The position numbers were made by a program. DNA of 9,274 nucleotides from a virus (lineage: Duplodnaviria > Heunggongvirae > Uroviricota > Caudoviricetes): the IMG/VR virus record IMGVR_UViG_2703719355_000015, positions 1 through 9,274 of that record, one strand, 5' to 3'. This document shows positions 3,001-6,000 of this stretch, piece after piece (the stretch's first letter is position 1; every line of letters begins with the position of its first letter).

Positions 3001-6000
3001 AGGAGGAGCAGCGAAGGCATACGAAAGCCCTGTTATACGAAATGCCTTGTTACGTCTGGCAAATACGCCAAAAGGTAGCACAGCATATGACAGAGCGATC
3101 AGTACGGTCACACAATCGCTCACCAGAGTCGCACAGGCATCACAAAAAGAAGCTCAATAACTGGCAGCCACGGATGGCTAATTTTTATTCTTTGATCTCG
3201 TCCACAGGGAAAGAAGAGCAATGGCAAGACAGGAAACAGAGAATAGATAACCTACCTCATATGGTGCGCCAAAAAAATTAGCTATTGATACGGGCAAAAA
3301 AGCCGAAGCGATCAGAATTGAAAGGCAAAAAATAAGCCCAGTAACATAGTTTATTAAACTCTTAAATGAGAAACGTTTTGCTTGATTTACGGTCTCAGCG
3401 AGTGATCGCTTAACGATGGATAAAAGCAAATAGATGGCGACAGTAGCTAATGCCCCTTTCCACCAGTCTGGATATAATTTTGCGACAATCAGCCCAAGGA
3501 AAACCATGATGACAGACTGAGTATTCACACCAACCTCCTTAGTTTTGCGCAGGATACCAGATGATACTTTATTGGTGGAGTGGTGTGTGAAAACGTGTCA
3601 ACGACAAACCATCCACAACTTGGACGAATGATTTAGCAAAAAGTGCTATTTTTGGTGTTTGGTGTCATAGAAACGTGAATAGCTTACTTTTCAACATTGC
3701 TTATGTTGTGAGTTCTAACGGTAACAGGGAGTGACTTAAGAAAGTTATACGCAGTAAAGCCAGCGGCAGTTTCCCCTCCCTGACTTGATATATGGATATT
3801 TAATTCAGTTGCGCCTTGAGATAATGCGGTGAGACAGTGGTTCTGAAGTTGCCCAACAGTGGCAGTGTTAACGGGGCATAAGAAATGAATTGTGTGCAGC
3901 ATTATTTATCATCCTTGCCATAAATCTTTTTAAGTGTCTCAAACACAACAGCCTTGAACTGCTCTGCCTGCTGATCAGCCAAGCGTTCAGCTTCGTCGCG
4001 ATAGCCAGTCACAGGCGATGGTTTTGATAGAGCATCTTGGACGATTTGTAACAACTCGGAGTTCATTGATCTCCCATTCGCCTCCGCCCTGAATTTTAAT
4101 TTCTCCCTTACTTCCAAAGGCATACGGAAGTTAAAGTGCGGATCGTCTCTAGCCATGCCATCACTCCAAGTTAGTATCTCTAACTTTCGTCTTTATTGTT
4201 GCTATACATGCATTTCAACTTCTCAACATCATGTTCAAGATCTATCAATCGTGATGCTATAGTTGCAAGGTCTAGTGCTTGAATGTGTTTATTTTTTTCG
4301 GTCCATGCTTCAAGTGCCGCGACCATCTCAGCATTTAATGAACGAGACTTAGCCTCAGCCAGTTCAATAAGACGTTCCTTTATCTCTACAGGAAGCCTCA
4401 GATTCACTTGAGGGTTTTTGTACTTACGATCAGACATCGGCACATCCTGAATAACTTTTTACCACAGGATATGTAGGTATCTATTGACTATCAATGCGTA
4501 CCTAAATACTATGTATGCGTACCACATACAGCGGAGGATGCAATGAAGGTAAAAACACTGCGTATGCCAGAGAAGTTAGAAAAAATCCTTGAAGAGAAAG
4601 CAAAGGAAGAGTGTCGATCGTTTAGCGCAGAAGTAATTAAACGGGTGCTGGACAGCTTGAAGAGAGAGGGGGTGATGGTATGAGTAAAGAATGTTGTTTC
4701 TGCGGCATTAGCGAATCAGACGCTGATCAAACATACATTTACTCTAAAGAAACAGGTCGGATGCTGTGTAGTGACTGCGTGTTGGACATCATAAGATACA
4801 AGCATCTTGGATGTTCTGCCAGCATTAGCAATATAGGTGAAGTATACGAAGGGAAAGATATAACTGATAGAGCAGAAAGTTGAAGCCCCAACTGCGGGAA
4901 CAGTCAGGGCTTCGGTATCGTAAAACCACGCATAGGAATTAACGACATGACGAGTGTAGCAATTGCAGAACATACAATCAACGTTCCATTCCACGGAACA
5001 AATCTCTTTTTGGTCAGCATTAACAATGAACCTTACGTTCCTATGAAACCCGTTGTAGAAGGTATGGGTATGGTTTGGGCTGCTCAATTTGTTAAATTAA
5101 AACAGAGATTTGTCAAAGGTATTTCGGAAATCGAAATACCTTCTGCTGGCGGTAAACAGTTAATGATATGCCTTGCCTTTCGTAAGTTTGCGGCTTGGCT
5201 TTCAAGCATTCAGCCAAACAAAGTCCGCCCTGAAATCCGCGACAAGGTAATCCAGTATCAGGAAGAGTGTGACGATGTGCTCTACGAGTACTGGACTAAA
5301 GGTCATGTAGTTAACCCACGCAAAGCTAAAAAGGCGTTGCCGGGTAAAATTACCACTGAACAGCAGGAAGCCATTAAACAACTCGTCATGAGTCGCGGTC
5401 AGTCTCTGCCAAAAGAAAAACAGGCTAAGGCGATGATCACCATGTGGTCGTCACTGAAATCCCATTTTGGATGTTCGTACAAAGAAATCAGTGAGGAGCA
5501 GTTTACCGAAGCACTATCACTTGCAGCTCGAGTTCCACTTGAAGGTGAGTTCATTGGCAAGTCGGAACATAATGAGATGAGTTGTTTTGATTGGAGGATG
5601 AATGTTCATAACCTGAACTCGGCGTGCATTCATCTTGATGCCATGTACAGAATATGGAGAGACGAAATGGAACCCGCTTTGCGATTGCTTGGCTCTCCGG
5701 TTGCGACCAGATTTTGCGGAAGAATTGCAGATTGCTATTCCGTAACTGCAAGCGTTAAGAAAAGTCTGGAGAATGCCGCAGGGCTGAAAGGCTTACAACC
5801 ATTTTAACTACCTGCACGAAAAGTGCAGGTCAATCATCAACGCAACGACCCAGCTTCGGCTGGGTTTTTTTATGCCCAAAATTCACCGTAGCCACGCTGC
5901 GGCGATTCCTTGCATCTGGAGCAAATTAAATGACAGACATTACAGCTAATGTGATTGTATCGATGCCTTCGCAACTCTTCACTATGGCGCGTTCTTTTAA

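Follow-up and report, generated by a model that had tools for sequence, protein, structure and literature searches.

The described systems closest to the gene considered here are serine proteases of the ClpP type. The nearest one whose structure has been determined, PpClpP1 (PDB 9UXT) from Pseudomonas plecoglossicida, is a homotetradecamer with the active site Ser73-His96-Pro151 and without the N-terminal loops on which ClpX docks; alone it displays a weak peptidase activity, and together with the canonical ClpP2 it forms mixed tetradecamers with a raised ClpX-dependent degradation, an effect reported for the PpClpP1/PpClpP2 pair only (PMC12900304). In that study PpClpP1 is presented as a divergent chromosomal ClpP paralogue and as a drug target, and the word 'prophage' is absent from the main text. 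The present work deals with a ClpP-like open reading frame (ORF) of 72 amino acids found in a stretch of DNA of 9,274 nucleotides (virus record IMGVR_UViG_2703719355_000015; hereafter, the window), which represents the late end of a prophage that is P22-like (Lederbergvirus-type). This ORF is very probably a pseudogene remnant, i.e., the front end of a 178-codon ClpP-like gene (hereafter, the parent) that was cut by a deletion between 11-bp repeats.

The 72-amino acid ORF occupies positions 3684-3902 of the minus strand, and was recovered by ORF listing with the ATG start and the size given in the initial annotation. Its ATG (3902-3900) has one A in common with the TAA stop (3904-3902) of the gene of a Mnt-type ribbon-helix-helix repressor of 84 amino acids (3902-4156, minus strand; Pfam Arc 6e-29, Repressor_Mnt 4.2e-12), the minus strand reading AAA-TAA-TG-CTG from 3907 to 3897, as expected from the TAATG overlap described earlier. 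The resemblance to ClpP, formerly proposed from a sequence motif, is not a matter of chance: the ORF matched PHROG 94 (6.7e-7), the NCBIfam family Clp_rel_HeadMat (ClpP-related head maturation protease; 2.2e-5) and PDB 9UXT (E = 4.4e-18), its residues 3-71 aligning with chain residues 4-72. The match to Pfam CLP_protease (PF00574; E = 8.9e-4) had a score of 19.6 bits, slightly under the gathering score of 20.2. This can be ascribed to the truncation, since the full-length parent reached 46.7 bits (E = 4.3e-12) with the same family. An S49/SppA or crotonase-type identity was discarded, as no such Pfam match was obtained at E ≤ 1 with either the fragment or the parent.

Concerning the point at which the ORF ends, an alignment of 23 homologues of the parent showed that S72 and H95 are invariant, and that the canonical Asp position is not conserved as Asp. 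In the 72-amino acid ORF, the position of the invariant S72 is taken by Lys72, which is followed by the stop, and H95 belongs to the deleted part; the catalytic Ser and His expected of a member of peptidase family S14 are thus both missing. Given that the catalytic Ser of 9UXT is Ser73 (PMC12900304), the ORF stops one residue before the nucleophile, which makes more precise the earlier statement that it ended before the catalytic residues. The comparison with E. coli ClpP gave a concordant picture, with the fragment aligning to the region just before Ser97 and being devoid of any catalytic residue. The structural extent of the fragment was considered on an AlphaFold model of the parent, built from a family sequence 99% identical to it (pLDDT, predicted local distance difference test, 91). 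The model displays, in this order, strand 2-7, helix 13-28, strand 33-40, helix 45-57, strand 61-71, helix 74-79, strand 83-86, strand 91-93 and helix 108-133, with further elements up to strand 173-177. The fragment corresponds to the first five of them, a beta-alpha-beta-alpha-beta piece, and the break coincides with the end of strand 61-71 and precedes helix 74-79. The elements missing from the fragment are, according to this model, the helix that follows the nucleophile, the strand with the His and the handle helix (108-133). So, the predicted fragment would contain neither a complete head domain nor the handle helix proper of an assembly of two stacked heptameric rings.

The origin of the ORF became apparent from comparison with related phages and prophages. 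Its residues 1-71 are 100% identical to those of a 178-amino acid protein of phiv205-1, PhiR12_1 and E. coli MBT-5, which past residue 71 reads ...NVE-S-IANIVFLAG... (phiv205-1/PhiR12_1), and the 216 nucleotides retained are also 100% identical to several full-length alleles. In a distant-mode DNA search of phage records, the segment 3529-3905 of the window behaved as two halves that never occurred together: 3690-3905 was 99-100% identical to six Escherichia phages, and 3529-3700 matched Salmonella phage Emek with 98% identity. The 3690-3905 half is, in phiv205-1 and PhiR12_1, the start of a 537-nt gene with its ATG overlapping the stop of a Mnt-type gene. A four-way alignment located the switch from one parental sequence to the other within a common 11-mer, TTCAACATTGC, of which the window contains one copy at 3690-3700, precisely where both homology blocks overlap; this is the deletion junction.

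The prophage locus of E. coli MBT-5 (L005) contains both halves. Window positions 2901-3700 are 99.1% identical to L005 1751-2550, and window positions 3690-3942 are 96% identical to L005 4001-4253, in the same order and strand; the two collinear blocks are also present in phiv205-1. In MBT-5, TTCAACATTGC occurs at 2540-2550 and at 4001-4011, 1,461 bp apart, and each flank ends in it. From these two collinear blocks with the 11-mer at both ends, it can be concluded that the window has the MBT-5 arrangement minus 1,461 bp. The interval lost comprises, as seen in MBT-5, a SocA/Panacea-domain gene (Pfam 2.2e-24), an adjoining 140-amino acid ORF and codons 72-178 of the ClpP-like gene. Since S72 and H95 are invariant in the family, the part lost held the catalytic residues. 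The SocA/Panacea gene and the 140-amino acid ORF, for which no family match was found (L005 2747-3624), may be an antitoxin-toxin pair.

On the other side of the junction, codon 71 of the remnant is joined to intergenic DNA (3529-3689) that normally lies upstream of the gene occupying the sieA position, and that is 98.3% identical to Emek and phiv205-1. Codon 72 (AAG, Lys) and the TAA stop (3684-3689) derive from this far side of the deletion. The initial annotation had proposed a search for frameshifted remnants of the gene in 3529-3683. None was found there, this stretch being a 98% match to the intergenic DNA that precedes the sieA-position gene in Emek, phiv205-1 and MBT-5, and a tblastn search of the window with the full-length protein returned only residues 1-71, with no trace of residues 72-178. 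The features of a deletion remnant hence concur at this locus, namely full-length homologues, collinear flanks, a direct repeat at the junction and the absence of the missing part from the rest of the window. Of the two interpretations offered initially, that of a decayed protease gene is supported, in the specific form of one deletion of 1,461 bp between direct repeats of 11 bp, and that of a designed truncated subunit has no support, for reasons given below.

It seems reasonable to interpret the sequence of events as follows. An ancestral P22-like prophage would have carried, downstream of mnt and start/stop-overlapped with it, the 178-codon gene of a short ClpP-like serine protease, which would have been followed by the SocA/Panacea-domain gene with the adjoining 140-amino acid ORF and then by the sieA-position gene. 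Within the protease gene, codons 68-71 would have contained one copy of TTCAACATTGC, and a second copy would have been situated in the intergenic DNA that precedes the sieA-position gene. A deletion between these direct copies, of about 1,461 bp and likely by replication slippage or by illegitimate recombination at short homology, removed codons 72-178 together with both neighbouring genes, and the reading frame left continues through one foreign codon (Lys) into TAA.

The frequency of the deleted allele was estimated in four samples: 5,426 complete E. coli genomes, 50,697 phage records, the genome_contigs collection (one genome per species) and a collection of 15 billion proteins. The junction occurred in none of the 5,426 genomes and in none of the 50,697 phage records, and the exact junction had no match in genome_contigs. 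In the protein collection, the exact 72-amino acid protein was found on three contigs, versus at least 1,000 contigs for the 178-amino acid form. The three carriers are the window itself (contig CYGN01000104.1 of assembly GCA_001286505.1), the Logan assembly of run ERR178211 and an ENA metagenome scaffold (L046). The window being a draft contig of 9,274 bp, it has to be considered that chimeras can form at short repeats, and that the junction could be an artefact of assembly or amplification. This is, however, extremely improbable, because the metagenome scaffold reproduces the junction base for base next to a different downstream gene. An identical junction is also present in the Logan assembly, which may or may not be independent of the isolate of the window. 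The recurrence in both the scaffold and the Logan assembly indicates that the junction is real rather than an assembly error.

The metagenome scaffold is 99.96% identical to window positions 3524-5892 and then continues into another downstream gene, an Emek-type ORF of 129 amino acids, whereas the window has a gene of 116 amino acids. The homology ends at the start codon of the downstream gene (window 3524-3528; L046 2365-2754), which constitutes another recombination joint at a gene boundary. The 129-amino acid protein resembles the gene 38 product of the Emek/Sf6 type.

Some observations weigh against considering the ORF simply as a dead remnant. The signals for its translation are intact, so that a product may exist: besides the TAATG overlap, there is a Shine-Dalgarno-like motif, AAGGA (3912-3916, minus strand, from reading of the sequence), located 9 nt 5' of the ATG of the remnant and within the last codons of mnt. 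The preservation of these elements and of the mnt promoter suggests that the 72-amino acid peptide is probably still translated in lysogens. Furthermore, the same junction occurs in two downstream backgrounds (116-amino acid gene or Emek-type 129-amino acid gene), which implies that the allele survived at least one further recombination event and is tolerated. As far as persistence is concerned, a neutral allele is indistinguishable from one under weak selection.

These same signals, and the presence of the allele in two genomic backgrounds, could be taken to mean that the truncated product is functional, i.e., that the fragment is co-produced with Mnt in lysogens, attaches to host ClpP subunits and poisons or caps the ring. 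It would agree with this that a full-length family member, PpClpP1, forms mixed tetradecamers with a canonical ClpP (PMC12900304). Nevertheless, a functional fragment, like the deliberately truncated subunit of the initial annotation, is very unlikely for several reasons: the allele is rare, with no instance among the complete E. coli genomes; the part retained is unchanged in sequence with respect to full-length alleles; the deletion that generated it also took two unrelated genes; and only the beta-alpha-beta-alpha-beta portion of a larger alpha/beta domain is left, without the handle region. Having lost about 60% of the fold along with the nucleophile Ser, the His and the handle helix, the peptide most likely remains unfolded and inactive and is degraded. 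The more specific supposition that the beta-alpha-beta-alpha-beta piece, co-made with Mnt, docks on host ClpP as a dominant-negative or ring-capping factor can be given hardly any credence; if true, a chance deletion would have converted a ClpP-remodelling prophage protein into a ClpP inhibitor. The pseudogene interpretation is therefore retained.

The family to which the parent belongs is already known, and includes PpClpP1 with its solved structure. Homologues of 178-187 amino acids occur across Enterobacterales and beyond. PpClpP1 (9UXT) is the closest solved structure to the parent (E = 4.6e-35, 38% identity), with a template modelling (TM) score of 0.92 for the parent model. Both proteins are similarly short, with 178 amino acids in the parent and 183 in PpClpP1, and both are without N-terminal axial loops; by this and by their similarity the parent belongs to the short, N-terminally truncated ClpP1 type represented by 9UXT. 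The Ser and His positions are kept (S72/H95 in the parent family, Ser73/His96 in PpClpP1), and the canonical Asp position is not Asp in either case. Two differences should be mentioned. In contrast to PpClpP1, the copy in the window ends one residue before the catalytic Ser, and the parent is a prophage cargo gene start/stop-overlapped with mnt, whereas PpClpP1 has been described as a chromosomal paralogue. The relationship with E. coli ClpP (MEROPS S14, PF00574) is more remote, with the same fold (TM about 0.8; Pfam 4.3e-12) and an identity of about 20%; unlike canonical ClpP, the parent is without the N-terminal loops for docking to ClpX or ClpA.

The names attached to the best PHROG (94) and NCBIfam (NF045542) matches are 'head maturation protease', and the annotation of the full-length gene in phiv205-1 uses the same name, which would be in line with the ORF being what is left of a capsid (prohead) maturation protease that was displaced from a head-gene module. 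The probability of this is close to nil. The cut-off of NF045542 is 120 bits, versus 24.5 bits for the fragment and 49.7 bits for the parent. In those phage and E. coli records that were examined, the full-length gene adjoins a Mnt/Arc-family gene in the immunity-I region, and not the head module, so that neither score nor location supports membership in NF045542. The closest solved relative is, moreover, a free-standing tetradecameric ClpP paralogue. It is established for P22 that capsids of this type assemble without any prohead protease, which also counts against this possibility. It is a short ClpP paralogue, and not a head protease, that we consider to have been truncated in the window.

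The full-length gene was found in 126 of the 5,426 complete E. coli genomes (about 2%) and in several phages. Among the E. coli records listed, it adjoins an annotated Arc-family gene. Among E. coli phages and prophages, the start/stop overlap with mnt was observed for three distinct Mnt alleles. It is not a general trait of the family, as it was not seen in the homologues of Pantoea, Erwinia, Proteus or more distant organisms. The intact 178-amino acid gene together with mnt is located at 3677-4461 in locus L001, 3677-4461 in L002 (PhiR12_1) and 3677-4464 in L005. The three Mnt alleles differ in their DNA-binding N-termini and agree almost fully in their last 10-20 residues, approximately (...ETLKTMYGKDDK and variants). 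The 3' end of mnt and the beginning of the ClpP-like gene together have the appearance of a common linker for module exchange. In PhiR12_1, the whole mnt + ClpP-like / arc + ant module (L002 3677-5689) is located in a lambda-like siphovirus, with the tail gene L on one side and K on the other, which indicates that the module moves as a unit between unrelated phage types. A search of the literature within the paper library used returned nothing on a ClpP-like gene in the immunity-I region or on its association with mnt. From its overlap with mnt, the intact parent is probably expressed in lysogens, in this case from the mnt promoter, and by analogy with the behaviour reported for PpClpP1 (PMC12900304) its product may join host ClpP rings.

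The initial annotation had also pointed to an ORF of 67 amino acids (4680-4883, plus strand), placed between arc and ant, as similar to the ClpX zinc finger, and had argued that the proximity of two Clp-themed genes made a coincidence less easy to accept. Neither proposal could be upheld. The ORF, which contains a CxxC...CxxC pattern and matches PHROG 7150, of unknown function, gave no Pfam match to a ClpX family at E ≤ 1, the only hit being UPF0167 (0.26). No ClpX chain appeared among its PDB matches at E ≤ 10, the best of which were marginal hits to RING fingers of RNF4. When compared by BLASTP with the N-terminus of E. coli ClpX (a query entered by hand rather than taken from a database record), only 11 residues were aligned, with E = 0.029 in a single comparison. 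Regarding the linkage to the ClpP-like gene, six relatives were examined and it was rejected: CUS-3 and TW14425 have the 67-amino acid ORF without the ClpP-like gene, and the converse holds for phiv205-1, PhiR12_1 and MBT-5. In CUS-3 the ORF is 100% conserved (L004 3718-3918), although it is uncalled there, inside the 'bsq2 boundary sequence'.

A second mosaic joint accounts for the vicinity of both genes. It is located in the 3' end of mnt, at 3921-3942, where the match to L005 and L001 ends (3940-3942) and that to L004 and L006 starts (3915-3921). To the left of this joint there is a mnt + ClpP-like module of the phiv205-1/MBT-5 type, and to the right a module of the CUS-3/UTI89 type with two ribbon-helix-helix genes. 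The 67-amino acid ORF derives from one parental module and the ClpP-like remnant from another, the two modules having been joined by recombination in the mnt 3' end, and the proximity of both genes is therefore uninformative about a joint function.

The remaining features of the window conform to the immunity-I region of P22 (mnt, arc, ant, and sieA beyond mnt), with divergent mnt and arc-ant units likewise situated between the genes of the ejection proteins (153-3160, plus strand) and the tailspike gene (5930-7726). In addition to the Mnt-type gene overlapped by the remnant, there is a second, tandem ribbon-helix-helix gene of Mnt/Arc type (87 amino acids, 4180-4443, minus strand). A divergent pair of promoter-like sites (4466-4512) is followed by arc (4543-4683), the 67-amino acid ORF and ant (4947-5807), and an acyltransferase gene (7797-8906) lies beyond the tailspike gene. 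Compared to P22, the window adds the second Mnt-like gene, the 67-amino acid ORF and the ClpP-like remnant. The tandem repressor pair (3902-4443) is found also in CUS-3 and UTI89, whereas MBT-5 and phiv205-1 have a single gene. The slot occupied by the remnant, with mnt on one side and the sieA-position gene on the other, has a variable cargo, which in other relatives is a PIN-domain gene (TW14425) or other ORFs. The next same-strand gene downstream of the remnant, at the sieA position, was recovered by ORF listing (3178-3528, minus strand); it encodes a predicted membrane protein of 116 amino acids, of which an identical copy is encoded in MBT-5. No family match was obtained for this protein in Pfam, PHROG and PADLOC searches. 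PADLOC, searched for membership in defence systems, gave no match for the fragment, the parent or the 67-amino acid ORF either.

As to the significance of these results, the fragment itself is a minor matter, a clean microhomology-mediated deletion in a variable cargo slot of P22-like prophages, and it serves as a warning that intact translation signals on a short ORF do not imply function. The useful by-product is the intact parent, a short ClpP paralogue of the PpClpP1 type present in about 2% of complete E. coli genomes. Its occurrence as a prophage gene suggests the idea that some prophages adjust the ClpP core of their host.

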